Shown piece by piece: positions 14,527 through 46,346 of a stretch of 46,853 nucleotides of DNA. Every line of letters begins with the position of its first letter. Within the stretch, counting starts at the first letter, position 1. Source of the stretch: Chiloscyllium plagiosum. Taxonomy: Eukaryota. The translations under genes and the position numbers were made by a program. The DNA is taken from contig NC_057719.1 of the NCBI RefSeq assembly GCF_004010195.1, positions 20,857,753 through 20,904,605 on the forward strand, given 5' to 3'. The notes beneath the pieces are model-generated. The model worked only from the letters and a program-made list of their open reading frames with translations. It did not search any database and was not told the origin of the DNA.

Positions 14527-15453
14527 ATGGCAGGGGACCTCAGACCCCTGGCATGTGACTCTTGCTTGATGTGGGAGCTTAGGAATGTGTCTGACGTTCC
14601 TGACTCTTACACTTGCAAGAAGTGTGTCCAGCTGCAGCTTCTGTTTGACCGCATGATGGCTCTGGAGCTGAGGATGGACTCACTGTGGAGCATCCGCGAT
14701 GCTGAGGGGGTCATGGATAGCACATTTAGTGAACTGGTCACACCGCAGGTTCGAATTGCTGAGGGAGACAGTGAATGGGCGACCAAAAGGCAGAGAAAGA
14801 GTAGGAAGGCAGTGCAGGTGTCCGCTGCGGTCAATTCCCTCCAAAACAGGTATACCGTTTTGGATATTGTTGGGGGAGATGGCTCACCAGGGGAGGGCAG
14901 CAGTTCTCAAGATCATGGCACCATGGCAGGCACTGCTGTTCAGAAGAGACATAGTCATAGGGGATTCTATTGTAAGGGGAGTAGATAGGCGGTTCTGTGG
15001 CTGAAAACATGACTTTCGGATGGTACGTTGCCTCCCAGGTGCTCAGGTCAGGGATGTCATCGATCAGCTGCAGAGCATTCTAAAAGGGGAGGGTGAACAG
15101 CCAGTTGTCTTGGTGCACAGTGGCACCAATGATGTAAGTAAAAAACGAGATGAGATCCTGAAAGAAGAATTCAGGGACCTAGGAGAGAAGTTCAAGAGGA
15201 CGACCTCAAAGGTAGTGATCTCAGGATTACTACCAGTGCCACGTGATAGCCAGCATAGAAATGAAAAAATAGGCAGGATGAACATGTGGCTTGATGAATG
15301 ATGTAGGAGGGAGGGTTCAGATTTGTTAGACATTGGGACCGGTTCTGGGGAAGGTGGGACTATTACAAAATGGACGGTCTACATCTGAACCAGACTGGAA
15401 CCAATGTCCTTGGGGGAGTTTTTGCTACTGCTGTTGGGGAGGTTTTAAACTAA
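14527..15453 (+). pseudogene. CR1 ORF1: zinc finger/leucine zipper + SGNH (GDSL) esterase, frameshifted
   Basis: CDSCLMWE...YTCKKC, IVIGDSIVRG, CLPGAQVRDV, VHSGTND, DGLHLN; ends GEVLN-stop. Confidence 0.88.
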
Positions 15454-16014
15454 TGTGGCAGGGGGCTGGAAACCAGAAGAGAAAGCAAGTAGGTAGTGAG
15501 GTGAAGACTGGAGACTGCAAGAATCATGAAGATAGCATTAATAAAGGGAAGAGTAGGCAGAGAGCAGATGAGCTCAAAAGAAATGGTGGCCTGAAATGCA
15601 TCTACTTTAATGCAAGGAGTATAGTGTGGAAGGCAGATGAACTTAGGGCTTGGATTGGTGCCTGGGAGTATGACGTTATTGCAATCACAGAGACTTGGTT
15701 GAAGGAAGGGCATAATGATTGGCAGCTAAATGTTCCAAAATATAAATGCTTCAGACAGGACAGGGTTGGAAGTAAAAGGGGGGGGGAGGTGTGGAGTTGC
15801 AGTGCTGGTCAGGGATGATATCGCGACTGTGCTAAAGGAGGACACTATGAAGGTCTTGGGTAGCGAGGCATTATGGGTGGAGCTGAGAAATAAGAAGGGT
15901 GCAGTTACATTGTTGGGGCTGTATTACAGACCTCTCAACAGTGAGCATGAGGTAGAAGAACAAATAGGTAAACAGGTTGCTGTGGTTCTGTTCGCCGAGC
16001 TGGAAGTTTTTGTT

Positions 16015-16054
16015 GCAAACGTTTCGTCCCTTGTCTAGGTGACATCCTCAGTGC
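16015..16054 (-). ncRNA. Minimal type-I hammerhead ribozyme (inverted copy, intact core)
   Basis: Minus strand GCA-CTGAGGA-T-GTCACCT AGAC AAGGGAC-GAAA-CG-TT-TGC. Confidence 0.78.
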
Positions 16055-16461
16055 TTGGGAGCATGAGCAAAACTAATGTAGTGTACAAAATCCCATGCAA
16101 GGACTGCACAAAACACTATGTAGGACAAACAGGAAGACAGCTAACGATCCGCATCCATGAACATCAACTAGCCACGAGACGCCACGACCAGCTATCCTTA
16201 GTAGCCACACATGCAGACGACAAGCAACATGAATTTGACTGGTACAACACTACCATTATAGGGCAAGTGAAACAAAGAACAGCCAGGGAATTCCTAGAAG
16301 AATGTCACTCATCCACAACTCCATCAACAAACACATTGACCTGGACCCAATATACCGGCCACTACCGCGGACAGCTGAAACTGACAACCGGAAGCGGCAG
16401 GGACAGGCCACTATAAATGCCGGAGGAAACACCACAGAAGCGCTTCACAGGAGGCTCCCAA

Positions 16462-16501
16462 GCACTGAGGATGTCACCTAGACAGGGGACGAAACGTTTG
16501 C
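16462..16501 (+). ncRNA. Minimal type-I hammerhead ribozyme (intact core)
   Basis: GCA-CTGAGGA-T-GTCACCT AGAC AGGGGAC-GAAA-CG-TT-TGC. Confidence 0.82.
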
Positions 16502-17267
16502 AACAAAATTTTCCAGCTCGGCGAACAGAACCACAGAAACGAGCACCCGAGCTACAAATCTTCTCACAAACTTTGAAGGTAAACAGATTATGGAAAGATG
16601 TAGAGGAAATAGGGTAGTGGTGATGGGAGATTTTAGTTTTCCCAATGTTGACTGGGATACACTTGACGTCAGTGGTCTGGATGGGGTAGAATTTGTACAA
16701 AGCATCCAGGAGAATTTTCTAGAGCAGTATGTCAATAGTCCGATAAGGGAAGGGGCCATATTGGACCTGGTACTGGGGAATGAGCCAGGTCAGGTGATAG
16801 AAGTTGCGGTGGGGATTTCTTTGGGAACAGTGACCATAATTCTGTACGTTTTAGAATACTCGTAGATAAAGTGGAGAGTGGTCCTAACGGAAGCGTACTA
16901 AACTGGGCCATGGCCAATTATATGAAAATTAGGCAGGAGCTGAGAAATGTGGATTGTATAGAGCTATTTGAAGGGAAGTCCACATTTGATATGTGGGAGG
17001 CTTTCAAAGATAGGTTAAAGATAGTGCAGGATAGGCATGTTCCGTTGAAGGCAAAGGATAGGAATAGCAAGATTTGCGAACCGTGGATGACAGGAGAAAT
17101 TGTACAACTAGCCAAGGGGAAAAGGGAAGCGTACATAAGGTCGAGGCAGCTAAGAACAGAACGGGCCCTTGAGGAATATCGGAAGAGTAGGACAAGTCTT
17201 AAATGAGGAATCAAGTGTGCTAAAAGAGGTCATGAAATAGATTTAGTGAGTAGAATTAAGGAGAATT

Positions 17268-17563
17268 CCAAAGCATTTTATTCTTATATAAGAAGCAAGC
17301 GGGTAATTAGAGAAAGGATTGGTCCACTAAAGGATAATGAAGGAAGGCCGTGTGTCAAACCTGAGAGAATGGTTGAGATTCTGAATGGTTAGTTTGCATC
17401 AGTGTTCACTGAGGAGAGGAACACCAAAGCATTTTATTCTTATATAAGAAGCAAGCGGGTAATTAGAGAAAGGATAATGAAGGAAGGCTGTGTGTCAAAC
17501 CTGAGAGAATGGTTGAGATTCTGAATGGTTACTTTGCATCAGTGTTCACTGAGGAGAGGAACA
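17268..17563 (+). repeat. Tandem duplication inside CR1 ORF2 (156 bp + 140 bp)
   Basis: 17268-17423 is repeated at 17424-17563; copy 2 lacks 16 bp between two AAAGGAT repeats. Confidence 0.95.
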
Positions 17564-19394
17564 TGATGAATCTTGAGATTAAAGATAGAAGTTTGATTAG
17601 TCTGGATGACGTTGACATAAGCAGGGAAGATGTGTTGGGTAGACTAGAGGTTATTAAGGTGGACAAATCTCCAGGACCGGATGGGATCTATCCCAGGTTG
17701 CTGAGGGAGGTGAGAGAGGAAATAGCTGGGGCCCTGACAGATATCTTTGTGGCATTCTTAAATACAGGTGAGGTACCGGAGGACTGGAAGGTTGCTCATG
17801 TTGTCCCCCTGTACAAGAAAGGTCGTAGGGATAATTTGGGTAAATACAGACCAGCGAGCCTGATGCTGGTGGTGGGAAAGTTGCTGGAGAGGGTACTGAG
17901 GGATAGAATCTATTTATATCTAGAAAGGAATGGGCTTATCAGTGATAGGCAACATGGTTTTGTGTGGGGGAGATTGTGCCTTACCAACGTAATAGAGTTC
18001 TTTGAGAAAGTGACCAAGTTAATAGATGAAGGAAGGGCTGTTGATGTCATATACATGGTCTTTAGTAAGGTGTTTGATAAATTTTCCCATGGTAGACAAA
18101 TGGAGAAAGTGAAGTCACATGGTGTGCAGGGTGTTCTAGCTAGGTGGATAAAGAACTGGTTGAGCAATAGGAGATAGAGAGTAGTAGTTGAAGGGAGTTT
18201 CTCAAAATGGAGAAAGGTGACCAGTGATGTTCCACAGGGGTCAGTGCTGAGACCACTGTTGTTTGTGATATACACAAATAATCTGGAAGAGGGCACTGTT
18301 GGTATGATCAGCAAGTTTGCAGATGACATGAAGATGGTGGAGTAGCAGGAAGCATAAGGGACTGTCAGAGAATACAGGAGGATATAGACAGACTGGAGAG
18401 TTGGGCGGAAAAGTGGCAGATGGTTTTCAATCCAGACAAATGTGAGGTGATGCATTTAGGCAAGACTAATTCTAGAGCGAATTATACAATGAACGGAAGA
18501 GCCTTGGGAAAAGTTGATGGGCAGAGAGATCTGGAAGTGCAGGTCCATTGTACCCTGCAGGTTGCTGCACAGGTGGATAGAGTGGTCAAGAAGGCATATA
18601 GTATGCTTGCCTTCATTGGACAGGGTATTGAGTATAAGAGCTGGCAAGTCATGTTAAAATTGGACAAGGCATTGGTTCGGCCACATTTAGAATACTGTGT
18701 ACAGTTCTGGTCGCCACATTACCAAAAGGATGTGGACCCTTTGGAGAGGTTGCAGAGAAGGTTTATGAGGATGTTGCCTGGTATGGAAGGTGCTAGCTAT
18801 GAAGAGAGGTTGAGTAGGTTAGGTTTGTTTTCATTAGAAAAAAGGAGATTGAGGGGACCCTGACTGAGGTTTACAAAATCATGAAGGGTATAGACAGGGT
18901 GGATCGAGATAAGCTTTTTCCCAGGGTGAAGGATTCAATGACGAGAGGTCACACTTTCAAGGTGAGAGGTGGAAAGTTTAAGGGGGATACACGCGGCAAG
19001 TACTTTACACAGACGGTGGTGGGCATCTGGAACGCGTTGCCAGCAGAGGTGGTAGAGGCAGGCATGGTGGATTCATTTAACTTGCGTCTGGACAGATGCA
19101 TGAGTAGGTGGGGAGCAGAGGGATACAGATGCTTAGGAATTGGGCAACAGGTTTAGACAGTAGATTTGGATCAGCTCAGGCTTGAAGGGCTGAAGGGCCT
19201 GTTCCTGGACTGTACATTTTCTTTGTTCTTTGTTCTCTTTGTTCTTTGATAACCGAAGAGCTGAGAATGCTCCTTGAGGGCAGTAGTGGACACAGCATGG
19301 TGCTTTTATGATGTTTTTGTTTAATAATTCTAGGTGCAAATCATTTCTTTTTTGTTAAACATTCCAAGTTATTTTGTGATTTTTAGCAAATGAA

Positions 19395-19750
19395 TGTGTG
19401 TGTGGGTAGGAGTTAAATGGGTAAGCTGATGAGTGTGTTGTAAACGGGTGAAGGAGTAGGGTGACAGGTTCTAGGTGGGTAGGTTGATCATATGGTAGAG
19501 CTGCAGGTTCATGGCTTGGTAAGTCAGTAGGGTGATGGGTTGTTGAGATGGCAGGTTGATTGTTTGGAAGTTGAGTATGATGGCAAGTTGGTGGTAGGTA
19601 GACAGGTAGAGTGGTAGATGGATAGAATGGCAGGTAGATAAGGTGGCAGCTGGGTAAAGGGGGTGTAGAGTGGTCATGGGCAAGAGATAGTGTGATTTGA
19701 ACAGGAATTGAGTCTAGAGAGGAGTGATGAGGCTGGGTAAGGAGTGGAGA
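19395..19750. repeat. G/T-rich low-complexity tract (GGTA/GGGT-like units)
   Basis: Direct inspection; explains the Pro/His/Thr-rich spurious ORFs. Confidence 0.7.
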
Positions 19751-19757
19751 ATCAATA

Positions 19758-20977
19758 TAAATAACAGGGTTGTTGTGATGGGTGATCTTAACTTCCCCTA
19801 TATTGATTGGGACTCGGACTTCCTGAGTAACAGTGGCATGGATGGGGAGAATTTGCTTGCTGTGTCCAGAACATTTTTTGAAACAATAAGCAAATAATCC
19901 AACCAGGGAAGGGGTCATACCAGACCTGATATTAGCAAATGAGCTTGGGCAGATAATTGAAGTTTCAGTCAGGGAACATTTCGGGAATAGTGACCATAAT
20001 TCTGCAAGTGTTAAGAGTAGTTCGAGATAAAAGTAGTTCTTGGGTGGAAGTACTAAATTGGATGAAGGCTAACTATGACAATATTAGAATTATAGAATCA
20101 TCATAGAATCCCTACAGTGTGGAAGCAAGCCATTTGGTCCATCGGGTCCACACTGACCCTCAAAAGAGCATCCCACCCAGATCCAGTCCCTACCTTATCC
20201 CTGTAGTCCTGCACCTACAATGGCAAATCCACCTAACCTACATTTCCCTGGACACTACGGGTAATTTAGCATGGCCAATCCACCTAACCAGATAGGCAGA
20301 AACTGGGGAATGTAGACTGCTACACTTTGAGGATAAATCCACATATGTCATGTGGGAATCTTTTAAAGGCCAGTTTATTTCAGTTCAAGACCAGCATGTT
20401 CCAATGAAAAACACGGATAAGGATGGAAAGATTAGGGAACCTTGGATGACAAGAGAAGTTGAGAGCTTAGTCAAAAAGGAAAAGGAGCCATACATAAGAC
20501 TTAGGAAACTGAAGAAAACAGAGCCCTTGAAGAATACAAAGATAGTAGGAAAGAACACAAATAAGGAATGAGGAGGGCTAAAAGGCAGCCACAAAATGTC
20601 TTTAGCAAACAGGGTTAAGGAAAATCACAAGGCATTTTATACATGCATGAGGAGCAAGAGGGGAGCTAGAGAAATAGTGGTTCCACTCATGGGCAAAGGG
20701 GAACATTTATATATGGAGTAGGAGGAGGTTGGTGAGGTCTTTAACAAATACTTGGCGTTGATATTCATAAAGGAGAAGGACATGGTTGATGGTGAGTCTC
20801 AGAAACGTATCTTGATATTCTGGGGCATTGGGTGTTTTAAAAAATACTAAAATGAACACATGCCCAGGATCTGATGGGTTCTAACCTAGAATGTTGAGTG
20901 AGGCAGGTGAAGAAATTATTGTGGCCTTGTACAAAATCTTTAACCACAAGAGAGGTCCCAGAGATTGGAGAATACCA
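19758..20977 (+). mobile_element. Older CR1 ORF2 fragment, interrupted by a SINE; probably continues at 22858-23695
   Basis: Collinear with about 16610-17790 (MWESFK...HVPMK...IREPWMT, PGSDGF.PRML...DWRI). Confidence 0.85.
20088..20290 (-). mobile_element. HE1-like SINE, 3' half
   Basis: Matches 8735-8900 and 45270-45410. Confidence 0.8.
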
Positions 20978-21070
20978 GGAGAAAGTGAGGTTTGCAGATG
21001 CTGGAGATCAGAGCTGAAAAATGTGTTGCTGGAAAAGCGCAGCAGGTCAGGCAGCATCCAAGGAGCAGGA

Positions 21071-21108
21071 GAATCAACGTTTCGGGCATAAGCCCTTCTT
21101 CAGGAATG
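21071..21108 (-). ncRNA. Minimal hammerhead motif (intact core, weak stem I)
   Basis: Minus strand CTGAAGA-A-GGGC TTAT GCCC-GAAA-CG-TT. Confidence 0.72.
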
Positions 21109-21987
21109 AGGAGGGTGTGCCAAGCAGGCTAAGATAAAAGGTAGGGAGGAAGGACTTGAGGGAGGGGCGTTGGGAATACGATAGGTGGAAGGAGGTTAAG
21201 GTGAGGGTGATGGGCAGGAGAGAGGGTGGGGGCGGAGAGGTCGGGAAGAAGATTGCAGGTCAAGAAGGCGGTGCTGAGTCTGAGGGTTGGGACTGAGANN
21301 NNNNNNNNNNNNNNNNNNNNNNNNNNNNNNNNNNNNNNNNNNNNNNNNNNNNNNNNNNNNNNNNNNNNNNNNNNNNNNNNNNNNNNNNNNNNNNNNNNNN
21401 NNNNNNNNNNNNNNNNNNNNNNNNTTGCAGGGGAAGGTGTTGGGAGTGGAGGTTGGGTTGGTGGGGGGTGTGGACCTGACGAGGGAGTCGCGGAGGGAGT
21501 GGTCTTTCCAGAACGCTGATAGGGCACGGGAGGGAAATATATCCTTGGCGGTGGGGTCTGTTTGGAGGTGGTGGAAATAATGAAGGATGATACGATGTAT
21601 CTGGAGGTTGGTGGGGTGATAGGTGAGGTCCTGGTGGTGATTGGAGGGGCTGGGTTCAAAGGCGGAGGAGCAGGAAGTGGAGGAGATGCAGTGGAGAGCA
21701 TCGTCAACCACGTCTGAGGGGAAATTGTGGTCTTTGAAGAAGGAGGCCATCTGGGTTGTTCGGTATTGGAATTGGTCCTCCTGGGAGCAGATGCGGCAGA
21801 GGCGAAGCAATTGGGAAGATGGGATGGCATTTTTACAGGGGGCAAGGTGGGAGGAGGTGTAATCTAGGTAGCTGTGGGAGTCGGTCGGTTTATAGTGAAT
21901 GTCTGTGTTGAGTCGGTCACCCCAGATAGAAATGGAGAGGTCTAGGAAGGGGTGAGAGGAGTCTGAGATGGTCCAGGTAAATTTGAG

Positions 21988-22197
21988 ATGAAAATGTGTT
22001 GCTGGAAAAGCGCAGCAGGTCAGGCAGCATCTAGGGAACAGGAGAATCGACGTTTCAGGCATTAGCCCTTCTTCAGGAATCGGCTAATGCCCGAAACGTC
22101 GATTCTCCTGTTCCCTAGATGCTGCCTGACCTGCTGCGCTTTTCCAGCAACACATTTTCATCTCTGATCTCATGCATCTGCAGACCTCACTTTCTCC
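21988..22197. mobile_element. Fold-back PLE mini-element nested in the RT of a closely related PLE
   Basis: Exact 16-bp TSD TCCAGGTAAATTTGAG (21972-21987, 22198-22213); about 80-bp inverted arms; 36-bp tail 22162-22197; minus-strand hammerhead at 22044-22081. Confidence 0.93.
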
Positions 22198-22444
22198 TCC
22201 AGGTAAATTTGAGGTCAGAGTGGAAGGTGTTAGTAAAGTGGATGAACTGTTCAACCTCCTCGTGGTAGCACGAGGTAGAGCCGATACAGTCATCGATATA
22301 GCGGAGGAAAAGGTGAAGGATGGTGCCAGTGTAGCTGCGGAAGATGGACAGTTCATCCACTTTACTAACACCTTCCACCCCGACCTCAAATTTACCTGGA
22401 TCGTCTCAGACTCCTCCCTCAGGTTACACCTGAACCTCCTACAT

Positions 22445-22855
22445 TTCACTGGAATGTAGGAGGTTCAGGTGTAACCTTATAGAGGTTTAGGTTTATAAAA
22501 TCATGAGAGGCATTGATAAGGTGAATAGCAAAGGTCTTCAGTCAAGGGAGGACGAGTTCAAAACTAGACTGTATATTTTTAAGGTGAGTGGAGAAAGATT
22601 TAAAAGGGATCTGAGGGGTAACGTTTTCACGTAGTGGGTGGTTCATGTACGGAATAAACTTCCAGTGGTAGTGATAGATGCAAGTACGGTTACAATATTT
22701 AGAAGACATTTTAACAGGTACACGAATAGGAAAGGTTAAAAAGAATATCAGCCAAACACAGATAAATGAGGCTAGTTTGGAAATTTGGTCAGCATGGATG
22801 AGTTGGACAGAAGGGTCTGTTTCTGTACTGTGTGACTCTATGAAGCCTATGATTC
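22445..22855 (+). mobile_element. CR1 3' end
   Basis: FSLECRRFRCNLIEV..KIMRGIDKV and a GACTCTATG tail. Confidence 0.85.
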
Positions 22856-22857
22856 TA

Positions 22858-23695
22858 GGCCTGTCAGAGAATGCAGCAGGATATAGAAAGGCTGGAGATT
22901 CGGACAGAGAAATTTTGACAGATGGAGTTTAATCCGGACAAATGCATAGTGATGGATTTTGGAAGATCTAAAGCAGGAGAGAAGCACACAGCAAATGACA
23001 GAATCCTTAGTAGCACGAACATGTAGAGAGATCTAACAACACAGGGCTACACTTCCCTGAAAGTGGCAACACAAGAGGATAATTGCACCAAGAAAGCATG
23101 TTATATAATTGCTTTCATCAGTTGGGGTTTAGCGTATGAAAATTAACAAGTCATGTTGCACATGTACCAAACTTTAGTTCAGCCATTCTGAACATTGTGT
23201 ACAGCTCTAGACATCACACCAGAAGAAGGATGTGGAGAGTTTGGAGAGAGTACAGAAATAGTTTACCAGGATGTTGCTTTGGTGGGGATTAGGTATGAAG
23301 AGAAATCGAACAAACTTGATTTGTTTTCACTTAAATGTTGAAGGATGTGGGACGACCTGACAGAAGTTTACAAAGTTATGAGAGGCATGGAAAGAATGGA
23401 TAGATGGAATCTTTTTCCCAAGGTAGAAATGTCAATTACTCAGGGAGTGGGTTTACGGTAAAAGGGAATACATTTAGAGGAGATGAGAGAAACAATTTTT
23501 TTCACACTGAGGGTGGTAAGTGCCTAGAATGTGCTGTCAGAGGAGATGGTGGAGGCATTTAAAATAATAATATTTAAGAGACAGATATATGAATAGGTTG
23601 GGAATAGAGAGATGTGGACAAAAGGCATCATGGGTTGGCACAGTCTGGGTGGGTCAAAAGGCTTGTTCCTGTGCTGTACAGTTCTTTATTCTTGA
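22858..23695 (+). mobile_element. Older CR1 RT to 3' end fragment
   Basis: Collinear with 18360-19220. Confidence 0.85.
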
Positions 23696-23819
23696 CTACA
23701 TTTGCCAATCTGATATTTCCAATCTATATAAAGGCCAAAGTCACCTAATTTATTGTATTTTTTACATGCCCTCATTACCTCCTGTTTTATTTTCTGCTCG
23801 ACACAATCAATTTTTAAAA

Positions 23820-24090
23820 ATATTCTCATTCATGAGATGAGGGTGTGCCTGGCTTGGCCAACATTTATTGCCCATTCTTCTCTGAAGGACATTAGTAAAT
23901 CTGATGGTTTTTTCCTGACAATTGAAATTGGATTTATGGTCATCATTCGGCTCTAAATTCTAGATTTTTATTGAATTCAAATTTCACTATCTACCATTGC
24001 GGGACTTGAATCTGGGTCCCCAGCACATTAACTGGGTCTCTAGATTAACATTCCAGCGGTAATATAACTAGGTTATCACTTCCCCTTATA
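23820..24090 (-). mobile_element. tRNA-derived SINE with L2/CR1-like tail
   Basis: Same family as 10890-11190; B-box-like GGGACTTGAATC at 24001. Confidence 0.65.
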
Positions 24091-25204
24091 TCAGCTATGA
24101 CTGAATGGCTAGCAGCCTAATTCTGCTCCTTCATCTTATAGTTGTTTAATGCTGTTAGAGTTACTCCTGGAAAATCTCCTTGTTATTTCTTACCTGCACC
24201 CATATGGACTCTTCATCTTCCAAGAACATTTCCTGAAGCTGAATCCTTTGTTGGTCAGTAAATCAATTTTTATGAAATAGCGATAATTTCCAATATTTAC
24301 TCAGTACCATTCTCCCACAGATACTAACAATGGTCAGGTAATGAAGTCACAGCATTTTTATGAAAATCCAATATGAAGGATAATAGACTAAGAGGAAAGT
24401 ATTACAGCTGAGAAGATAGGGTCAAAAAGTAGCAATTAATTTCATTGCAAGAAGCTTAGGAACCTCCAGAGTTGTGAAAAATATTGAGAGTAGTAAATAT
24501 TTTAAAAATAGTTTCAGTAGAGATTCCTTCTAGAAATCCTATTGCCAAAACAAAAGGGACATTGGAATATTTTCCTCATGCATAGTGATGAGATCAGGAA
24601 ATGTTTAATAGAAATGGCTATTGAGACAAAAACTATCACATAGCTAACATGCAAATGGAATAAGCATCTGAGAAGAAAGAATATGAAGGGAAAGGTTAGG
24701 GCATAATTATCTCCAGGTGAAGTAATAGCAGCAGCGTACATAGGAAAGGCCAAATTACTTCCTTGTGTGCTATAAAATCTAATGATCTTTTCTTTCTTTG
24801 TTCTGGGGTTTGTCAGCTTTTATAAGTTACATATGCTGTAACTGATATGGACACCAATGAAATAGCTTAAAGATGGCTGTCAGTTTGTTTAACCTATTTA
24901 AGTCAGACAAAGAACATCTCCACCTTAAGTGACTACTTGAAGCCTCCATTTCAAGGTTCCGATGACAGGAAGCATTAATGTTGGTTCCCTCTCATACACT
25001 TTCCTCCAATAATACATCTCTTCAAATTGGAGGTATCGTTTCAAGATAGACCACGCATGCTTGGCTTCAAATTCAATAGATTTGACTTGGATGTTATTTC
25101 CTGATAGAGAACCTGAAGTAAGAGGCTGAGGTGGAACTCTCCAGTTCTTCCTAACAATAGAGCACCAGAAGATTTAAACCTCAGGCCTTGCCTGTTCAAT
25201 TGGT

Positions 25205-25850
25205 GTGATCTGATCTAATTTGATTTATTATTGCCATTTGTACCGACGTACAATGAAAAGTTTTGTTTTGCGTATAGTGCGGGCACATCATACCATACAT
25301 AGTGTATTGAATAATAGAACAGAGTGAAGAATACAATGTTACAGCTGTAGAAAAGCTGTACAAAGAGCGAGATCAACATTTAAATTCAAAATTTAAGAGG
25401 TCCATTTCAGAAGTCTGATCACAGTAGGAAAGAAGCTGTTCTTGAATCTGTTGGTTTGTGTGTTTAAGCTTTTGTATCTTCTGCCCGATGAAAGAGATTG
25501 GAAGAGACGATAACCGGGGTGAGAGTAGTCTTCGATGATGTTGGCTGCCTTCCCAATGAAGCAAGAAGTGTTGATGGAGTAAATAGATGGAAAGTTGCAG
25601 TGGCTTGTGTTTACAACTCTCTGTAGTTTCTTACAGTCTGAGGCACTACATTTACCGTTCCAAGCCGTGATGCATCCACATGGAATGCTTTCTATGGTGC
25701 ATCTATAAAAATTGGTAAGAATCTTTATAAACATGCTGAATTTCCTTAGCCTCCTGAGGAACTCGAGGCATTGTTGTACTTTCTTGACTGTAGCATCAAC
25801 ATGAGTGGACCAGAATAGATTGTTGGTGATTATCACTCTGAAGAACCTAG
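25205..25850 (-). mobile_element. Rex1/Babar-type LINE 3' fragment
   Basis: ORF ...KKVQQCLEFLRRLRKF...NFYRCTIESI...AWNGKC...TNRFKNSFFPTVIRLL. Confidence 0.88.
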
Positions 25851-27399
25851 ATCCATGCCTAGGCCCATTCATCTCACTGTTAAACTCAGCAAGAAGTATT
25901 CATTAGTTGGTGGACTGAAGCTGAATTTCATGTGACAAGATATCAGGAGTCTGAAGGGAAAATGAGGGCAAATGAGGCAAGCTTCCCAAATGGAGTTAGT
26001 CAGATTAACCCATAAGAAAAATAAAAGGAAAATATGAACAGCCTTCAAACAAACCTCTCCCCTGGTCTTTGAGCCTTTTCAAATTCTGATGAAAGGTTAA
26101 CAGTTCTGAAACACTGGTCAAGATTGTTCCCAGGCTGACAGAGGTAGGTTCTTGGGTGGGAACGGCCAGAAATTGAACTTCAATCAGATATCATATATCT
26201 TTCGCTGTATCCATAAGGAGAGTGGAAAGCCTGTTACGAAGTTGTGATTGAAAAGATCTTTAAGAGCTGTTATCACCTGAAGTCTGGATGTCCCAGTCAC
26301 AGAAACTGCTTTCCAAGCTGTCAGCAGGGGTCACCAAGGGGTTGACACCGCAGGAAGAGATTCTACATTAACACTGGCAAATAGGGAAGGCTTGGATCAG
26401 TTACACTGCAGAGCTCCAGCCACGGCCTATGAGTCTGTTGATAAAAGTACTTCTCCTCTCAGAGTATTCTGATAGATAATTGCCAACAGCTTAGAAAGAG
26501 CTTAAACTAACACTTGACTGTTCTTTAGCTTCATTTCTCTTCTGTGAACCTGTACCACTGCTTGAGACTTTCTGCTTTTATTGCAGAGTTCCTTCCTCCA
26601 TAGTAGTTTGTTTCCTTTCTGCCTATCTGTTTAACCTTTCTTATATTAACCAACGTTACAACTGTTAACTTAGTGTTCACATATCAATGAGAAAAAAAAA
26701 CCCAAATATTTAAATTTGCATGAAAACTCATTGCTTCAATGTGTGTCAAATTGATGATATTGGATTGTTAAAAAAAATTTGAATACATAGCTGTGGCAGG
26801 GAGGAAGCAAGAGAGAGAAAAAGAGAGGCAATTTCAGAGAATATAAATGCATTTTAAATCCAATCCACCACATGGGGTATTTCTGAAAATGTTGTGCTAT
26901 TAGGCTCTTTGCATACTAATATGTTCTTATAAAAGGCTGATGCTTGGCAAACATTTTAATGACTTTTTTTTAAATACATTGAAATTAAAGTAGGCTTCTG
27001 TAATTATAATAGCAATGAAATTCACAATTTAAGGTATTGGATTTGTATTTTCAGGAAAATCCTTCCTGTTGTCCTCGCACCAGAGTTTATCATCAGGAGG
27101 GTTCAGTGATCTGAGCATGCATTCTCACAGCCACGGTAAACCTAGTGTGCTCTATAAAGAGACACATTTTGTGGAAATAATTGGGACCATTGGCTGAGCA
27201 TTACAATCTGTAGACGTTAGTGTCACTGTACTTTGTAATATCACTCCACTCCCAAAGACTGGCAAGTTTAAATCTACCTTTCAAGATACATCTCAGTTTC
27301 CCTTTCAGAGGTATTTTTGGAGGTTATGAAGAACAAAAGAATTGATTTCAAAGAAAGGGAAAGTTATCACTAGTCCCTCAGGATTGAGGATATCCTTTC

Positions 27400-27940
27400 A
27401 TTGTTATTTATTCACAAGATGCAGGCTTCACTGGTTGGGCCAACATTTATTGCTCATCCCGAATTACTACTGTGAAGGTGGATTTGAGATGCCATTTGAA
27501 GCTGCTGAAGGCTAAGCATTTCGATATGTCTCTGTGGCTTGCTAAATTGTTTCAGAGACTAATTAAGAGTCAACCACAGTGCAGTGGGTCTGGAGTCACA
27601 CGTAGATCGGAAGAGGTACGTGAACCAGCTGGGTTTTTACGACCAAAGCACAGCAGGTAAGGCAGCATCCGAGGAGCAGGAAATTTGATAGTTCGGGCAA
27701 AGGCCCTTCATTCTTGATGAAAGGCTTCCTGATGAAGGGCTTATGCCTGAAACATCGACTCTCCTGCTCCTCTAATCTTGACTCTAATCTCCAGCACCTG
27801 CAGGACCCACTTTCGCCTGGATTTTTACGACTATTGAGTTAGTATTTAATTCCAGACATGTAAAAAAAAATCAAAATTTCTCTATGGTTAGATTTGAATC
27901 CAGGTCCCCAGAGAATTACCTGGGTCTCCGATTGCCAAAG
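27400..27940 (-). mobile_element. tRNA-derived SINE with L2/CR1-like tail, interrupted by a PLE mini-element
   Basis: Same family as 23820-24090. Confidence 0.65.
27644..27816. mobile_element. Fold-back PLE mini-element with hammerhead motif
   Basis: 15-bp TSD CTGG(G/A)TTTTTACGAC at 27629-27643 and 27817-27831. Plus strand CTGATGA-AGGGCTTATGCCT-GAAA-CA-TC from 27729. Confidence 0.85.
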
Positions 27941-28747: not shown

Positions 28748-28852
28748 GTAAGACCCTTCCTCAAACGGGTCATTCGAACTGAAACATTAACTCTGATTTC
28801 TCTCCACAGATGCTGCCAGACCTGCTGAGCTTTTTCAGCAATACCTGTCTGC
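28748..28852 (+). mobile_element. PLE terminal mini-insertion
   Basis: Same terminus as 40601-40700. 13-bp TSD GTAGAAGAAA(A/G)TT at 28735-28747 and 28853-28865. Confidence 0.78.
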
Positions 28853-30830: not shown

Positions 30831-31457
30831 TTCATTATAAATTTGAAAACGTTCTAGTGACTTCCTCTCTCACCATGGCCTGGATAGCATCTATCTCCAT
30901 GGGAAAGACAAATATAATGTATTCATTTAATATTTTAGCCATATACCATGCCTCCACGTGTAAGACAGCTATTTGGCTCTTACTTGATCTCCTTCCTCTT
31001 TTGACCACTCTTTTACTTTTATATGCCTAAAGGAGACTTTAGGTTTCCCCCATTATATTGGCTGCCCGTCTTCTCATAATTCCTCTTTGTTTTCTGTAAT
31101 AAGCTTTTTCACCTCATCTCTGAATCTTCTGAATCCCTTTTGGTTCATGCTCGCCTGTTCTAACTCATTAGATGTACACCATGCTATCCAGGCCATGGTG
31201 AGAGAGGAAGAAACTCTTTCAACGAATATTTTCAAATTTATAATGAAGTATCTTTCGTGGTACAAGTGATGGAAAACAGAAACTAATGATCCGTGGATAC
31301 TGTTTAGGTTGGAGGAAGGCTTGTAGTGGAGCACTCCAGCACTTTAATGAACCAGATCTTGGTTTTGCAGGAGATAATTTCATAATTTGAGGATGATACA
31401 AAACTTGGAATTTTTTTAAACATTGAGGAGGACAATGCAGAACTTCCAAAGAACATA

Positions 31458-31680
31458 TTACTGCGGATGCTGGAATCTGAAACCGAAAGAAAAAATGTTG
31501 GAAAATCTCAGCAGGTCTGGCAGCATCTGTAAGGAGAGAAAAGAACTGACGTTTTGATTCTAACTGATCCTTTGTCAAAGCTTTGACAAAGGGTGGGTTA
31601 GACTCGAAATGTCAGCTCTTTTCTTTCCTTACAGATGCTGCCAGACCTGCTGAGATTTTCCAGCATTTTCTCTTTTGGTT
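31458..31680. mobile_element. Spacer-less fold-back PLE mini-element (100-bp arms)
   Basis: Arms 31481-31580 and 31581-31680 (11 mismatches by hand count). 14-bp TSD TTCCAAAGAACATA at 31444-31457 and 31679-31692. Confidence 0.93.
31577..31619 (+). ncRNA. Variant hammerhead motif with U3-A8 core
   Basis: AGCT-TTGACAA-A-GGGT..GTTAGACTC-GAAA-TG-TC-AGCT. Confidence 0.65.
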
Positions 31681-31893
31681 CCAAAGAACATAGGTGGAGT
31701 GAGGAGATAGACGACAAATGAATTTCAATGCGGAGAAGTTTGAGGTGATGGATTTTGACAGGAAGAACATGGACAGACAATATAAAATTAGGTTGCAATT
31801 CTAAATTGGGTGCAGGGGCATACTTTTAAAGGTGGCAGCACAGGTGAAGAGACCATACTATATCCTGAGTCTTATTAATAGCAACAGAGAGTT

Positions 31894-34800
31894 CAAGATA
31901 GCAGTGTGGCAGCAGCTCACACAGCCTCTCCAGACCAAGAGCCACTAAATTTCAGGAAACAGGAAGCAGACACTGTTACAAGCTACAAAAACTGCTCCAG
32001 TACAAGAACCAGCTGAAAACGTACCTGGATGGAGAGCTACAGTAGGAGCTAAGTGATCTTGGCTTGTTTCAGGGACCAGGCCTCCAAACCTCGGCCTCGC
32101 CTGATGTCGGTGATCAGATGTTGAGATGTCAGAAGCAATGAGCGAGGAGGCGGAAGTGCGGTAAGCATGGAGGAGTTCTCGGCTTGCTGCAGAGACCAGG
32201 CCCCAATCCTCAGCCTGCCTGATGCCGGCATCTGGGTGTAGAGTCATTAGAAGTGGTGTGTGAGGGGAAGGAAGCAGGATAAGCTGGCAGTAAAATCAAA
32301 CCCTAGCTGACCAGCTCTCCCATCCATTCTGCTCTCCAATGTCTGCTCCCTGGACAACAAACTGGACTGCATCCGACTGTGGCAGGCACTTCAGTGTGAG
32401 TTCAGAGATTGCTGCGGTATTGTTTTCATGGAAACATGGTTCAGCGACAGAGTTCCAGACACCGCATCCAGATAGACGGGCTTGACTTGTTTTGCACTGA
32501 CAGAAATGCAGCTCTGTGCAGTAAGGCTTGGGGTGGGGTCTGTGTCTACATCAACACAACATAGTGCAAAGACTCCATGTTAATCTCCAGTTACTACTCG
32601 TCACCGTTGGAGTTTGTGACTGTTAGCTGCAGGCCATTTTACTTGACATGGGAATTCATCGCTGTCCTTATAGTTGGGGTGTATATTCCTCTCAGTGCTA
32701 ATGTGAACTGTATGGGGCCATTAGCGGCCTGTAGAATACACATCCTGACGATCTGTTTATTGTTGCTTGAGGTGTCAACCATGCAAATCTTAAGACTATG
32801 CTCCCTAAATTCCATTAGCATGCGGGCTTTGCAACAAGAGACGAGAACGCACTGGATCTGGTTTATACAAACATCCCCAACACAGATAGGGCAGAACCCC
32901 AGTCCCACCTCAGCTCCTCAGACCACATCTCTATAATGCTACTCCCAGCATACAGCCCGCTCGTCAGACGGGTCAAACCACTTCTGAAGCAGGTGAAAAC
33001 CTGGCCGGCAGGAGCCATTTCTGCTCTTCGAGATTGTTTTGAGCACACAGACTGGCACGTGTTCAGGGCGGCGGTAACCAATGGCGATTCTATCAACTTA
33101 GAGGAGTATGCGGCGTGTGTCACATTAGCAAGTGTATTGATAACATTACTGTATCCAAGAGCATCATTTTTCATCCCAATCAGAAGTCGTGGATGATCAT
33201 AAAGGTATGTGCGCTGCTGAGGACCCGGGATTCCGCCTTCAGAGCAGATGACAAGGCAGTCCTAACAGCAGCGAGAGCCAACCTGATCCAGGCCATCAAA
33301 GAGGCAAAGTGTGAATATGCACAGAGAATACACAGCCACCTTCAGGACAGCAGCAATACATGGACCATGTGGAAGTGCATCCAGGCCATCACCAACCACA
33401 GAACAGCATCGCCTGCTTGTGCTGGTGATGTATCCCTCCCGGATGAGTTGAACAGTTTTTATGCATGGCTTGAGGCACAAAATGATGTGGCAGTGAAGAA
33501 ATCCACATTTTCCCCCCCCCACCCCATTCCCAATGACTGGGTTCTGTGTCTTACCATGGCCAACATGAGGAAAACCCCATGCAGAGTCAACCCACATAAA
33601 GCTGCTGGGCCAGATAACATCCCTGACAGAGTTCTCAGAGGATGCTCTGAAGTACTAGCAGATGTTCTCACAGACATTTTCAACATCTCCCTGAGCTCCT
33701 CCATAGTTCCAAATACTTCAAGGCTGCTACCATCGTCCCCATGCCGAAGAGGTCTTCAGTGGCCTGCCTCAACGACTACCACCCTGTTGCGCTAACACCA
33801 ATCAGCATGAAGTGCTCATGAGGAGCCTCATCATGAGGCATATTAAAACCTGGTGCTCCCCTCACTGGACACTCTGCAGTTCACATATTGACTCAACAGA
33901 TGATGCCATTTCCCCCACCCTCCATCTGGCCCCCATTTGGAGAAGAAGGACACCTTAGTCAGACTACTGTTCATAGACTTAAGTTCTGTATTTAACACTA
34001 TCATTCCTCAGCACCTGATTGGAAAGCTGAGTCTGCTGGGCCTAAATACTTCCCTTTGTAACTGGATCCTGGACTTCCTGACTGGGAGACCTCAGTCAGT
34101 TCTGATTGGGAACAGCATCAACAACACCATCACACTGAGCACAGGGTGCCCCCAGGGCTGTGTGCTCAGTCCACTGCTGCTCACCCTGCTGACATACCAC
34201 TGTGCAGTAATGCACGGGTCGAATCACATCATCAAGTTCGCTGTTGATACGACTGTAGTGGGTCTCATCAGCATGAACGACAAGTCAGCATACAGAGAAG
34301 TAATGCAATGGCTAATGGACTGGTGCAGAGCCAACAACCCTTCGTTGAACGTGGACAAGATGAAAGAGATGGTTGTTGAGTTTAGGAGGGCACGGAGCGA
34401 CCATTCTCCACTGGACATCGATGGCTCCCCTGTGGGGATCGTGAAGAGCACCAAATTTCTTGGCGTTCACCTGGTGGAGAATCTCACCTGGACCCTCAAC
34501 ACCAGCTCCAGAGCCAAGAAAGCCCAGCAGCATCTCTACATTCTGCATAGGTTGAGGAAAGCCCACATCCCATCCCCCACCCTCATCACATTCTGCAGAG
34601 GGTTCATTGAGACTACCATGAGCTGCTGCATCACTGCCTGTTTCAGGAATTGCACCGTCTCAGACTGTAAGACCCTAAAACAGATAGTGGAGACAGCTGA
34701 GAAGATCATCGGGGTCTCTCTTCCCTCATTACAGACATTTACTCCACACACTGCATCTGAAAGGCTAAGAGCGTTGTGGAAGACCCCACACACCCTTCAC

Positions 34801-35126
34801 TCAAACTCTTCTCCCTCCTGACATCTGTCTCTCACGGCCAGACTGTGCTACAATCTCTTCCCCCAAGCCATTAGGCTCCTTAACATCTGAAATTCTTTGC
34901 ACAACTTTGAATTGCTGCTAGAAAAATGTCTACTATTTATCATTCTTCTATTACATTATAACTTGTGTGTTTTGCACTTCTTATGCACTTTATGCTGTGT
35001 ACGATTGTGTAGTTTGTGCTGTCCATGTAGCACCCTCGCTACCGGAGGAATGCTGTCTCATTTTTACTGTATCAGTTGTATATGGAAGAAATGACAAATA
35101 AAAGATACTCTATGCTCTATTCTCTA
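31894..35126 (+). mobile_element. Near-full-length Rex1/Babar LINE (APE + RT, many disruptions), inserted in a CR1
   Basis: [97 protein letters not shown]; (CTCTA)n-like tail. Confidence 0.92.
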
Positions 35127-35625: not shown

Positions 35626-36778
35626 CATAGAGTCATAGAAATGTTCAGCACAGAAAAGATCCTTTGGTCCAACTCGTGACCATATGCTGACCAGATATCC
35701 TAACCCAATCTAGTCCCATTTGCTGGCACTTGGCCAATATCCCTCTAAACCCTTCCTATTCATATACCCATCTAGATGCCTTTTAAATGTTGCAATTGTA
35801 CCAGCCACCACCACTTCCTCTGGCAGATCAGTCCATACACACACCACCCTCTGTGTGTAAAAGTTGCCTCTTCACCCTAAACTTAGGCCCTCTAGTTCTG
35901 GACTTCCCCATCCCAGGGAAAAGACTTTGTCTATTTATCCTATGCATGCCTCTCATGATTTTATAAACCTCTATACGGTCACCCTATAGCCTCCGACGCT
36001 CCAGGGAAAACAGCCCCAGCCTGTTCAGCCTCTCTCTTCAACCCTGGCAACATCCTTGTAAATCTTTTCTGAACTCTTTCGAGTTTCACCACATCCTTCC
36101 GATAGGAAGGAGACCTGAATTGCATGCAATATTCCAAAAGTGGCCTAACCAATGTGCTGTACAGTCACAACATGACCTCCCAACTCCTATACTCAACGCT
36201 CTGACCAATAAAGAAAAGCATACCAAACATCTTCTTCACTATCCTACCTACTTGTGACTCTACTTTCAAGGAGCTATGAACCTGCATTCTGAGGTCTCTT
36301 TGCTCTGCAACACTCCCCAGGAACTTATCATTAAGTGTGTAGGTCCTGCTCTGATTTGCTTTCCCAAAATGCAGCACCTCACATTTATCTAAACTAAACT
36401 CCATCTGCTACTCCTCATCCCATTGGCCCATCTGGTCAAGATCCTGTTGTAGTCTGACATAACCTTTTTCGCTGTCCACTACACCTCCAATTTTGATGTC
36501 ATCTGCAAATTTACTAACTATACTTCCCATGTTCACATCCAAATCATTTATATAAATTATGAAAAGCAGTGAGCTCAGTACTGACCCTTGTGGCACTCCA
36601 CTGGTCACAGGCCTCCAGTCTGAGAAGCAACCCTCCACCACCACCCTCTGTCTTCTACCTTCAAGCCAGTTCTATATCTAAATGGCTAGTTCTCCCTGCA
36701 TTTTATGAGATCTAACCTTGCTAACCAGTTTCCCATGAGGAACCTTGTCGAAAGTCTTACTGAAGTCCACATAGATGT
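35626..36778 (-). mobile_element. CR1 RT to 3' end fragment
   Basis: VTSGVPQGSVL...IYINDLD...SKFADD; MEFSLDKCEVLHFG. Confidence 0.92.
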
Positions 36779-38174
36779 GGAACCATCGTATCTATTGCAG
36801 AATACTAAATATTTTCAACTATGTTTTCTTGAAATGCAAATACACCTACCTAGATTATACATTTTAGCAATTTATACTAGCCAGACATAATGAGCCAAAT
36901 GGCCTCCTTTTGTGATGTAACACCTCGGTGTTTCTGTTGAATGTTCCCATATAATCTTTTGACACCCAGTTGACAGACTATTTTGACAAGTGAATTAAAT
37001 CTGGGGAAAATATCTTGCAAGCATTGAATGAAGCAAATGGTGATGCGTGTGTGCAATATGCGTATCTGCCATGCTGATACACATTATCCAGCATCTGTTT
37101 TCTCTCTGCTATATGTTATCTGGCTGGTATAAATTGCTAAAATTTATAATCCAGGTAAGTGTATTCACTTTTCAAGAAAGCACAGTTGAGAATATTTAGT
37201 ATTCTGGAATCAATGCGATGGTTCTCCATGAAAAATTGCTTTAGGTTTTCAATTTGTTCTCAGTGCAAACATTTACTTTGCAAGTATTTGCCTAAGTGGA
37301 ATCATCTGTAATATTGAAGGTGGTATAGTCATCTGGTTAGAATTCACTTAACTCTGGCCATTCTACTCCAGTCCCTGTACCTTCCTGTATTTCTGCAGAA
37401 CTCATAATCCAGCCACTCAACAAAAAGAGCTGCAAATGCGATTACTTAAAGGAGAACTGGCCCCTCATAAATTTTAACTTCATTCACAAACAAAGTCAGT
37501 CATGCAGCACTGTAAATCATATGTGTTGAAGATAAAAAAAAGGTATGTAAAATAGGACTCTCTCACTGAGTAGTTGGAGCCAGACTGGTTTATTTCCACC
37601 TTAGAACCATAAGCTAACATAACAGAAAAAAAAATCCCTGTAGATTATTTACCTCACAAACCACTCGCTGACTGTACCCAACTATCTGGTATCAACTACT
37701 AAGATGTCAATAAGATCTTTCAAGGAGGAATGCTAATGTATTGCGAACAATTTGATTACTATGGCTATGAACACAGAACAAGAAGACATGTTGTTTTAAA
37801 TTGACAAGCACGGGAGGAAAAATTCCAACAATTCCACATCCTGTTCAGGCAAACACACAAACTAAGTTAATGAATAGGTTAAACATATTATGAATAAAAT
37901 TTGTTAGTTAATTTTGTTTCAATTAAATTATTAAGAAAACAGGGTCACTTCCCTCTCTCTACAGCTCAACAGCACATACAGCTTGTACGCCTACTTTGCG
38001 AAAAAAAAGCTTTCAAGGTGTTGGCATAAGTAGCAAACAGGGGAAATATAATCTTTTTGGTCCGTGTTTGATTGAAAATTGGGTGAGGGATTATTGAGGT
38101 ACAGGCATAGACTGAGATAATCAAGTATACTACAGATTGTGAGAGCTCCTGTGCTTTGCATAAACATGCAACTG

Positions 38175-40055: not shown

Positions 40056-40138
40056 AACAAAGAGGCCTAGTAGTGTACGTGTTAAGTCCTTGAAAGTGGA
40101 GTCACAGGTAGATGGTGATGAAGACGGTTTTTGTCATG

Positions 40139-40735
40139 GCAGCATCTATGAAGAGAAATCAGAGTTAATGTTTCAGGTCTGGTGACCCTTCCTCAGAACT
40201 GATAGTAGCTAGGAAAAAGCCCAGATATTATACAGAAGATAGGGTGAGTGGAGGGGGTAAGGAGTAAAGGATATGTGGGGATGGAGCCCAAAGAGAGAAA
40301 GTATTAGGTGGATTGACAAAAGGGTGGATAGAGACCTGGCAAAGAAAGTGAATTACTGTTAATGGAGAACGTTAGTGGCTAACAATGGGTTGTGTTTAAT
40401 AGCATACTGTGATAACAAGGCCTGGTATGTGGGGGTGGGGGCTCGGACATGGGAGAGCTAAAGTTATTGAACTCAATAATGAATCCAGAGAGCTGCAGAG
40501 TTCCCTAGCAGAAAATGAGATGTTGTTCTTCCACTTTATGCTGAGCTTCACTGGAGATAGAGATGTTGGCCGGGGAACAGGGTGGTGTGTTGAAGTGGCA
40601 TCAGTTCTGAGGAAGGGTCACTGGACCTGAAACGTTGACTCTGATTTCGCTTCACAGATTTTGCCAGACCTGCTGAGTTTTTCCAGCAATTTCTGTTTTT
40701 GTTTCTGGTTTACAGCATCCGCAATTCTTTTGTTT
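40139..40735. mobile_element. PLE 3' end (minus, GIY-YIG C-terminus + UTR) with an inverted terminal copy (plus)
   Basis: Minus strand EAQHKVEEQHLIF..GTLQLSG..IEFNNF; inverted arms 40139-40202 and 40601-40667. Confidence 0.85.
40603..40640 (+). ncRNA. Minimal type-I hammerhead ribozyme (intact core)
   Basis: AGTT-CTGAGGA-A-GGGTC ACTG GACCT-GAAA-CG-TT-GACT; minus-strand partner at 40163-40200. Confidence 0.78.
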
Positions 40736-42061
40736 TTTTAACAAGGCTTCTGTTATGTTGGGGCTGTACAGAACATTGGCCACTTTTAGAATACTGTATA
40801 CAGTTCTGGTCACCTTGCTGTTAAACTTGAGAGGGGGCAGAACAGGGTGTTGCCAGTACAGGAAGGTTTGAGTCGTAGGGAAAGGCTGAATAGACTGGCA
40901 CTTTTATCCTTGGAGCGTTGGTGGCTGAGGTATGACCTACAGAGGTTTATAAAATCATGAGAGGGGTGGATAAGGTGAATAGCCAAAGTCTTCCCCTGAG
41001 GGTGGGCTGTCCACAACCAAAGGGCATAGGTTTAAGGTGAAAGGAGAAAGACTTAAAATGGACCTAAGGGGCAATGTTTTCACACAGAAGGTGGTGCATG
41101 TATGGAACAAGCTGCGAAAGGAAGTTGTGGAGGCTGGTACAATTACAGCATTCAAAAGGCATTAGGCTGAATAGAAAGGGTTTAGAGGGATATGGGCCAA
41201 ATACTGGCAAATAGGACCAGGTCAGATTGGGATGTCTGGTTGATGTGGACGAGTTGGACTGAAGGGTCCGTTTCCATGCTGTATGCTTCTATGGTTCTAA
41301 GATGCTTAAAGGTGTTTACTCAGAAATTGTGAGCCCGACAAATTTAATAATTAGCCTAATGCCTTATTGGTTAATCTCATTGGTTAGCAAATATGCTTAG
41401 GCCCCTTTTTTTATATACAAAAGGTAAGAGTAACACATTTTAATTTTTATCCTGAACACCACGGCAATGCTTTTGACAATCAGAATGACTCACCAACAAA
41501 TCAGTACCCTTTTCTTCCGCAGTGTGATTTATTGTGAACGTTTGAAATTTGCAATTCCTGATATTGTCTTGATGAATGTAAAATGAAACGTTTCAGCAAC
41601 GAGTCACTCTTTTAATATATAACATTAAAACTGAAATTATGAATCACATTAATAAATTTATATTTATATAATATAATGGGAATTGGCTTTATACAAGTTC
41701 CATACAAAAAATAAATCATTCTCACAAACCGTCAAACACCAAAGGTTCCTTTTTGACACATTCCAACAAAATTTCTTGATGTACTGAAATTAATTTGAAC
41801 GTTGAGCAACTTAGGAGAGTACTAAAGCAGCTTTTCCCAAGGCAGTTATTAATCTGCAGAATGCCTTGGACGAATTCTATCCTTCCATTAAATTCACGAT
41901 GGAGGAATTGAAACAGAACAGATAAGTTGTATTTTAGCATACATTTACACCAGAAATGTATTTGATTGACTGTTGGCTTCACTCCAAAGTTGAAATTGTG
42001 TTGTGTAAATCAAATGGCTGCATTTGCTGACACCAGCACATGCTCACTATGCACACACAAT

Positions 42062-43581: not shown

Positions 43582-43665
43582 AGGCAAAAGTGAGGACTGC
43601 AGATGCTGGAAACCAGAGTTTAGATCAGAGTGGTGCTGGAAAAGCGCAGCAGGTCAGACAACAAG
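43582..43665 (-). mobile_element. 84-bp PLE extreme 3' terminus insertion
   Basis: Matches the 20978-21055 type terminus. 14-bp TSD GGT(A/G)TTCATCCCTT at 43568-43581 and 43666-43679. Confidence 0.82.
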
Positions 43666-46284: not shown

Positions 46285-46346
46285 CACATGAGAAGCAGAA
46301 ATTGCTAGAAAAACTCACAGATCCGACAGCAACTGTAGGAAGAAAG
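46285..46346 (-). mobile_element. Decayed PLE terminal fragment
   Basis: CAGAAATTGCTAGAAAAACTCACAG resembles the reverse complement of 40670-40697. Confidence 0.55.

Follow-up and report, generated by a model that had tools for sequence, protein, structure and literature searches.

A spacer-less palindrome in the genome of Chiloscyllium plagiosum, most likely two Penelope-like element end-pieces joined head to head at the self-complementary stem of their hammerheads

RESULTS

Anatomy and insertion site of the palindrome

The analysis covered a stretch of 46,853 nucleotides from Chiloscyllium plagiosum (contig NC_057719.1), hereafter the window. At 31458-31680 it contains a palindromic insertion, copy 1, whose arms (31478-31580 and 31581-31683) are 103 nt each, 88% complementary, and meet with 0 nt between them at the axis 31580/31581, in the sequence CAAAG|CTTTG. 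The RNA fold of 31440-31700 has an energy of -163.6 kcal/mol (z -19.7), which was equalled by 0 of 200 shuffles. These values agree with the original prediction of spacer-less inverted arms. Its description as a palindrome of two 100-bp arms held for the missing spacer but not for the symmetry: the left arm (31481-31580, - strand) has an extension of 23 nt without a mirror (31458-31480, - strand), and the right arm (31581-31680, + strand) ends without it. This extension, the 3' extreme of the putative Penelope-like element (PLE) terminus, is called the tail below. A coding role was rejected, as five of the six frames across copy 1 have stops and the open one is short.

Copy 1 is enclosed by a target duplication, TTCCAAAGAACATA, with its left copy at 31444-31457, within a decayed CR1-type RT fragment, and its right copy at 31679-31692, where it is overlapped by the final two T of the right arm. 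The two copies are identical at 14/14 positions (chance about 7e-7 over 121 offset pairs). The flanks were placed by pairwise alignment, since a five-way MAFFT alignment with CR1 paralogs misplaced the left flank, and they match consecutive parts of one CR1-type paralog (18299-18376, then 18379-18469). The 14-mer is thus single in the paralog and a true target duplication at copy 1. The predicted 14-bp duplication, and with it insertion by retrotransposition with duplication of the target, was therefore confirmed. Copy 1 itself is old and inert, and its layout and hammerhead variant are both of published kinds.

Hammerhead motifs and the turn of the palindrome

A strict descriptor of the minimal hammerhead matched six sites in the window, against none in any of 10 shuffles. 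One match is a minimal type I motif in the right arm of copy 1 (31579-31617, + strand), with an AGCT/AGCT stem I, a U3-A8 core, an extra A before a short stem II, GAAA, and no stem III; its predicted cut lies after 31613. It is the one hammerhead site out of three that passed the descriptor in family A, the terminus family of copy 1 and of a second copy (copy 2) described below. Each of the other two is one core base off: the left-arm site of copy 1 (31582-31544, - strand) has G12>A at 31555, and the left-arm site of copy 2 has G5>A at 12172, where the intact core letter makes up 85,998 of 89,718 (96% C) of the aligned-contig depth (X1). An outward hammerhead had been expected in each arm; the motifs are there, but the core is whole in one of the three sites and the right one of copy 2 has been deleted. 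No hammerhead was matched here by Rfam at E up to 5. The 14 Rfam matches were all under the gathering score, and those at copies 1 and 2 were to miRNA-hairpin models.

The axis sits within the upstream strand of stem I, 2 nt before core base 3. The centre of copy 1 is AAAGCTTT (31577-31584), and its AGCT (31579-31582) is the stem I 5' strand common to the hammerheads of both arms, in accordance with the proposed turn at the self-complementary AGCT of the ribozyme. A turn at the ribozyme cut site, that is, at the downstream AGCT, was ruled out because the whole motif is kept in both copies. In a transcript running through the unit, arm would pair with arm to form a 100-bp hairpin, and the hammerhead would therefore be unable to fold. 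It was also observed that the U3-A8 core makes a CTTTG-N-CAAAG interrupted palindrome at 31569-31592, which places three adjacent symmetry centres at the turn.

The arms as putative PLE termini

Each arm is, as judged from sequence likeness, a 3' terminus of a PLE. Over 125 nt, the terminus of family A shares 78% identity with that of its closest relative, family C (40613-40736, in the insertion 40137-40736), and the partner arm of family C continues into sequence with C-terminal matches to 8 of 31 homologues (best E 2e-8). These homologues are of the RT + GIY-YIG type, and P0026 has both RVT_1 and GIY-YIG. It is because family A resembles a terminus that is itself joined to a GIY-YIG-type C-terminus that its arms can be assigned to PLEs, and the proposal of hammerhead-bearing PLE termini stood up well on these grounds.

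Other families in the window also have PLE coding sequence beside their termini. Those of family B adjoin an RT-thumb/linker frame whose homologues in elasmobranchs reach 75% identity; for the frame 21427-21984 the best named homologues are from the bamboo shark, the whale shark, and rays (31 matches among 260 candidates). Another terminus lies beside a GIY-YIG domain at 16039-16413 (atlas score 0.95, family on 28% of the cluster). The cysteine linker CX2-5CxxC was found in family E and in the family B homologues P0002 and P0026; the window holds no linker stretch of family A or C. According to the available text of PMC8557442, this linker between RT and EN marks the Neptune and Nematis clades. 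Pfam gave no family for any of the four PLE-like frames, and both LINE frames matched RVT_1. An autonomous coding body for family A was absent from the window.

A second copy of family A

Copy 2 (12042-12217) consists of a tailed arm (12042-12176) and a tail-less arm (12177-12217). Its axis, AAAG|CTTT at 12176/12177, equals the turn of copy 1 to the base, as the prediction of a second copy with the same turn sequence had it, and the outer end of the short, tail-less arm is the identical base in both copies. The unmirrored tail is 34-35 nt long (23 nt in copy 1). The target duplication (12027-12041 and 12216-12229) matches at 14/15 positions with one indel. The right arm has lost 59 nt, including its hammerhead, by a deletion between short GA(C) matches.

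In contig alignments the left junction of copy 2 was also found in organisms B and C, and a search of their contigs for an empty site found none. Copy 2 itself is older than the split of organism A from B and C. Exact-pattern scans of metagenome, genome, and viral contigs for more copies gave 0 matches.

Contigs and reads over copy 2

Contigs and reads of four of the 24 listed runs were aligned to 11900-12330 at 85% likeness. There were about 25,000 contigs of family A and related families in each of the organisms A, B, and C. Family A-specific depth, which is not a copy number, reached 89,718 at 12172 in organism A against 3.3-6 on single-copy contigs, 7,445 against 11.3 in B, and 23,070 against 25.1 in C; the ratios, to be read with the same limit, are about 15,000-27,000, about 660, and about 920. 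As a side observation, the U3-A8 family seems far more abundant in organism A than in its two relatives when judged by summed contig depth, which gives no copy number.

G at 12179, which a non-mirrored continuation would have there, made up 1.6% of depth in organism A, 11% in B, and 31% in C, with the limit that continuations that do not match tend to be clipped. Its presence as a minority letter in A, B, and C alike is a hint of continuations that are not mirrored. In organism A, 15 contigs stop at 12176 and then run into mixed sequence that is not the mirror. Of the 15 joints listed, out of 23, four switch strand and have one side at 12168-12178, and three opposite-strand joints tie 12168-12178 to 12114-12119, near the deletion of copy 2. 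None of these 15 of 23 joints is a symmetric one at 12176/12177; contigs may be limited at hairpins, or perfect pairs may be fewer than the depth suggests. Among the variants listed for 12153-12180 in organism A, none is near 50%. Organism C has a contig (record 16) that covers 12093-12219 within a different flank, with 11 other letters and 7 gaps. One polyA single-cell RNA run, of which about 2 in 100 were read, gave 480 reads of family A and related families on both strands, two of them at 99% or more, a result that speaks of presence only; the reads did not pile up at shared starts or ends.

Divergence between arms

The left and right arms of copy 1 differ at 12 of 103 sites, CpG-type changes among them. 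Over these 103 nt the three full arms of family A form a star, with 7 private changes in the left arm of copy 1, 5 in its right arm, and 3 in copy 2, the last three being minority letters in the reads. Within the 37 nt covered by four family A arms there are 0 left- or right-specific sites, a weak test with two copies only. In family B, the arms of the palindrome at 21988-22197 have four variants in common that are absent from the pieces at 21017-21107 and 31-121. The pattern fits arms that were identical at birth and has little power against a homogeneous family of units.

Insertions of five terminus families

BLAST with the terminus of each family (A to E) yielded 13 insertions in the window, in a search that favours short pieces. 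In nine of them one arm ends between 11 nt before and 9 nt after core base 3 of the hammerhead. In a separate count of nine junctions, seven fell in a 21-nt window (binomial p < 1e-8); this figure is biased by how the pieces were found, and no conclusion is drawn from it.

Both family A copies belong to these nine. Family B contributes two palindromes whose centres are unlike each other, one with a tail-less and a tailed arm (21988-22197; 16-bp duplication), which lies in a longer family B element, and an older one with an irregular centre (27644-27816; 15-bp duplication with one mismatch). It also has a solo arm, tail-less and unmirrored (32-124, + strand), that starts 3 nt before the core and has its own 15-bp duplication with one mismatch. 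Another unmirrored piece, at 8335-8431, has no clear duplication. The family C pair at 40137-40736 joins a long arm that runs into the GIY-YIG-type C-terminus to a short tailed arm that begins 7 nt before the core, so that the tail-less arm is the longer one. A family C stub (28752-28848) has a mirrored piece of about 15 nt at the hammerhead and a 13-bp duplication with one mismatch. The ninth is an inverted pair of family D (15976-16579; duplication of 11-13 bp), whose short arm, without a tail, ends 11 nt ahead of the core and whose long tailed arm bears GIY-YIG; the join drops into the middle of the ORF.

The other four end elsewhere. An inverted insertion of family E with two long arms (3561-6692; junction in the ORF at 4836/4837, 14-bp duplication, one-sided tail) and the host element that begins at 20975 both invert in the ORF, and the pieces at 43587-43663 and 46293-46336 stop before the motif. 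Target duplications range from 11 to 16 bp across the insertions; none was found for 40137-40736 or for the host element at 20975. In each of the six inverted pairs that have a duplication, the tail is on one arm and missing from the other; were this left to a coin toss for every pair, it would come about 1 time in 64. The features of EN+ PLE insertions found here are a pLTR-homologous terminus, a minimal hammerhead, an inverted copy with a one-sided tail, and a duplication of variable length.

Since the end point is common to mirrored, unmirrored, and long-armed insertions, the turn point is probably a property of the template and not of a palindromic family. Of the two origins first proposed, recurrent fold-back thus fits better than a fixed family, as sister families end alike whether mirrored or not. 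The solo tail-less arm with its own duplication (32-124) indicates that the inner end can be an RT start site.

Two further observations concern these insertions. The host element at 20975-22420 is a family B PLE with an RT-thumb, inverted in the RT region (about 22354), and the family B palindrome that it hosts has the 16-bp duplication given above. In the insertions at 21988-22197 and 28752-28848, of different families, the antisense arm reaches stem I, and the sense arm takes up again at stem II (+8/+9) without the core; this stem II restart is a second recurring junction type, seen in two families.

DISCUSSION

A palindrome probably built anew at each insertion

The 220-base palindrome is most likely two PLE end-pieces that lie head to head in one insertion and are joined at the self-complementary stem of the hammerhead. 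On this reading, copy 1 would be the most reduced example of an inverted arrangement that is known from PLEs. We give a probability of about 70% to the reading that it is an inverted-pLTR-plus-tail insertion, dead on arrival and built anew at each landing, in which the mirror would be rebuilt every time, probably by two cDNAs that stop at a fixed place and join.

In the mechanism that we propose, a PLE RT/GIY-YIG protein would cut the target strands about 14 nt apart, a distance suggested by the duplication, and each free 3' end would prime reverse transcription of an uncleaved PLE RNA. Priming at an outer start site would give the tailed arm and at an inner start site the tail-less arm. Both cDNAs would stop just upstream of the hammerhead core, probably where the template reaches its 5' end or at a strong stop, for which a transcript start or a splice point is plausible. 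The last bases copied would be the self-complementary AGCT, through which the two cDNA ends may anneal before fill-in. From flank to flank, the product would run through the antisense arm and then the sense arm, with the 3' terminus of each on the outside, between the target duplications. An uncleaved template and the retention of the whole hammerhead fit each other.

The two cDNAs probably annealed through AGCT rather than arising by snap-back; within the reading of a structure built anew we favour the former roughly 2:1. The self-dimer has an energy of -3.8 kcal/mol for the 4-mer AGCT and -7.8 kcal/mol for the 8-mer, and the sole intramolecular hairpin of the cDNA end, CTTT-GTC-AAAG, has -0.4 to -0.5 kcal/mol, is centred 5-6 nt from the axis, and was used by neither copy. 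With no loop at AG|CT, a weak off-centre hairpin and a strong self-dimer point to the annealing of two cDNA ends. Annealing at stem I is the element of this account that most deserves a test.

The same energies bear on snap-back, in which a single cDNA would fold back near stem I, copy itself, and halt with 23-35 nt still to go before its start, which would become the unmirrored tail. Snap-back priming at AGCT was one of the original proposals; the turn is indeed at AGCT, but a literal snap-back has no loop at AG|CT, and the hairpin that is available would shift the axis by 5-6 nt. Self-priming is the published reading of junction palindromes in the available text of PMC3846280, it explains the matching arms within a copy, and it accounts for exactly one tail in 6/6 pairs better than two cDNAs do. 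The two-cDNA model does not yet explain the asymmetry of the tails, given that the strands showed no difference in start site in vitro. However, two pairs would need an extra template switch under snap-back, 40137-40736 with its longer tail-less arm and 15976-16579 with its join into the middle of the ORF, and the solo tail-less arm at 32-124 has a duplication of its own. We regard snap-back as a somewhat unlikely origin.

The base-exact centre and tail-less end in both family A copies tell against construction anew at each insertion and are equally predicted by a propagating unit. In that case the whole palindrome would be a non-autonomous family, and a PLE protein would copy in trans an RNA that forms a hairpin and has a 3' tail left single-stranded. 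The very high depth of family A in organism A with G at 12179 at 1.6%, the record 16 contig of organism C in its different flank, and the three opposite-strand joints near the deletion of copy 2 would also suit such a unit. Yet the four arms lack arm-specific sites in their 37 common nt and divergence is star-like elsewhere, the variants listed for organism A hold none near 50%, sister families reach the same end point as solo or long-armed pieces, and centres vary between copies. Moreover, no promoter is evident and the ribozyme would be buried by the hairpin. A propagating palindrome is in our judgement unlikely.

That copy 1 is a DNA-transposon MITE, a later inverted duplication, or an assembly fold-back artefact, the last two unrelated to PLE insertion, is highly improbable: it is short and non-coding with inverted arms and a target duplication, but its ends are not the mirror-image termini of a MITE (the tail of 23-35 nt is one-sided), duplications vary (11-16 bp overall, 14-15 bp in family A), the arms have homologues among termini that adjoin PLE coding sequence, and, against an artefact, the arms have diverged at the 12 sites reported above, CpG-type changes included, and one duplication encloses both.

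Relation to known elements

The nearest counterparts that have been described are the inverted-pLTR-plus-tail insertions of EN+ PLEs. In the portions available of the papers concerned, PMC3846280 describes inverted pLTRs, a one-sided tail, and junction palindromes, and inverted pLTRs with a one-sided tail and target duplication appear also in PMC8557442 and PMC8969392. Our insertions are like those EN+ examples (PMC3846280, PMC8557442, PMC2377424) in the head-to-head terminus, the one-sided tail of 30-40 nt, the duplication, the junction palindrome, and heavy 5' truncation. They differ in that both family A copies are reduced to the module from hammerhead to tail with nothing between, and in duplications of 11-16 bp compared with 8-10 bp in the rotifer examples. 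Here the junction is pinned to hammerhead stem I, whereas such a link was not found stated in the available text of those three papers.

The hammerhead agrees with the minimal hammerheads of metazoan PLEs in the accessible part of PMC4209133, among them the U3-A8 form of Schistosoma Cercyon: it is of type I, with a short helix I, an extra base 9/10.1, G10.1-C11.1, a palindromic 15.2-16.2, and U3-A8 covariation. The same source describes dual hammerhead motifs 100-700 bp apart on opposite strands, in contrast to the two motifs here, which overlap and have one stem I strand in common. Its main text does not name sharks. For a splice point or transcript start as the place where copying stops, there is the case of D. 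virilis, in which an intron ends at helix I (PMC4209133), and the available text of PMC2377424 treats the start site and intron.

The available text of PMC11167929, on Poseidon PAc from Anolis in vitro, reports that both target strands were cut and extended, that hammerhead cleavage was not needed, that two RT start sites bound the tail, and that the strands did not differ in start site. Poseidon PAc belongs to the Penelope/Poseidon clade and has its hammerhead at the ORF start, whereas the families nearest copy 1 carry the cysteine linker of Neptune/Nematis. As far as that text goes, inverted products are not modelled.

A retrozyme-like unit had also been suggested. Metazoan non-LTR retrozymes (available parts of PMC7229834 and 10.64898/2026.07.22.740005) are likewise short, non-coding, dependent on a PLE protein, and equipped with type I hammerheads; they are direct tandem repeats, also in the sections seen of PMC6765202, with canonical hammerheads and circular RNA, in contrast to copy 1, an inverted pair with minimal hammerheads that would be buried in a hairpin. 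The suggestion fails, since the arms are inverted and the window has neither tandem direct hammerheads nor a tandem unit of family A.

Neither family A of this shark nor the pinning of junctions to stem I was the subject of any paper found in the literature covered; sources beyond this scope, namely supplements, subscription papers, Repbase, and Dfam, may hold it. The available text of PMC8557442 and PMC11167929 treats the origin of tandem and inverted PLE insertions and the role of weak hammerheads as open. For the question of PLE insertion, a genome with very many stubs and with junctions at stem I amounts to a large natural data set, and from the zero-loop centre follows a sharp prediction that separates two annealed cDNAs from snap-back. 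If stem I does act as a cohesive end, the poorly active PLE hammerhead would have a structural role, the unexplained inverted insertions would be accounted for, and the self-complementary stem I would make the seal exact in family A. The many hairpins could supply double-stranded RNA in introns. We consider doubtful the broader proposition that PLE integration would routinely consist of two converging cDNAs, with uncleaved stem I as both stop point and cohesive end, and would have left thousands of spacer-less palindromes in one shark lineage, possibly up to a self-moving unit.

Other features of the window

The window is repeat-rich animal DNA. A near-perfect hairpin with arms of about 30 bp, a loop of a few bases, and no hammerhead lies at 22413-22485, in the interval that separates a CR1-type 3' piece from the end of a PLE fragment. 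At 36775-37229, inverted AT-rich arms of 111 bp (86%) stand 233 nt apart; they have no hammerhead match and look like an old MITE. There is a LINE RT fragment at 33043-34821 with matches to RVT_1 and ALKBH8_N, and further CR1-type pieces occur at 17467-19156, together with many 3' fragments. A direct tandem duplication of about 150 nt (88%) was seen in a CR1-type fragment at 17268-17563. Assembly gaps (N runs) occur at 6076-6188, at 21299-21425, and near 42300, two of them in PLE bodies at simple-repeat tracts.
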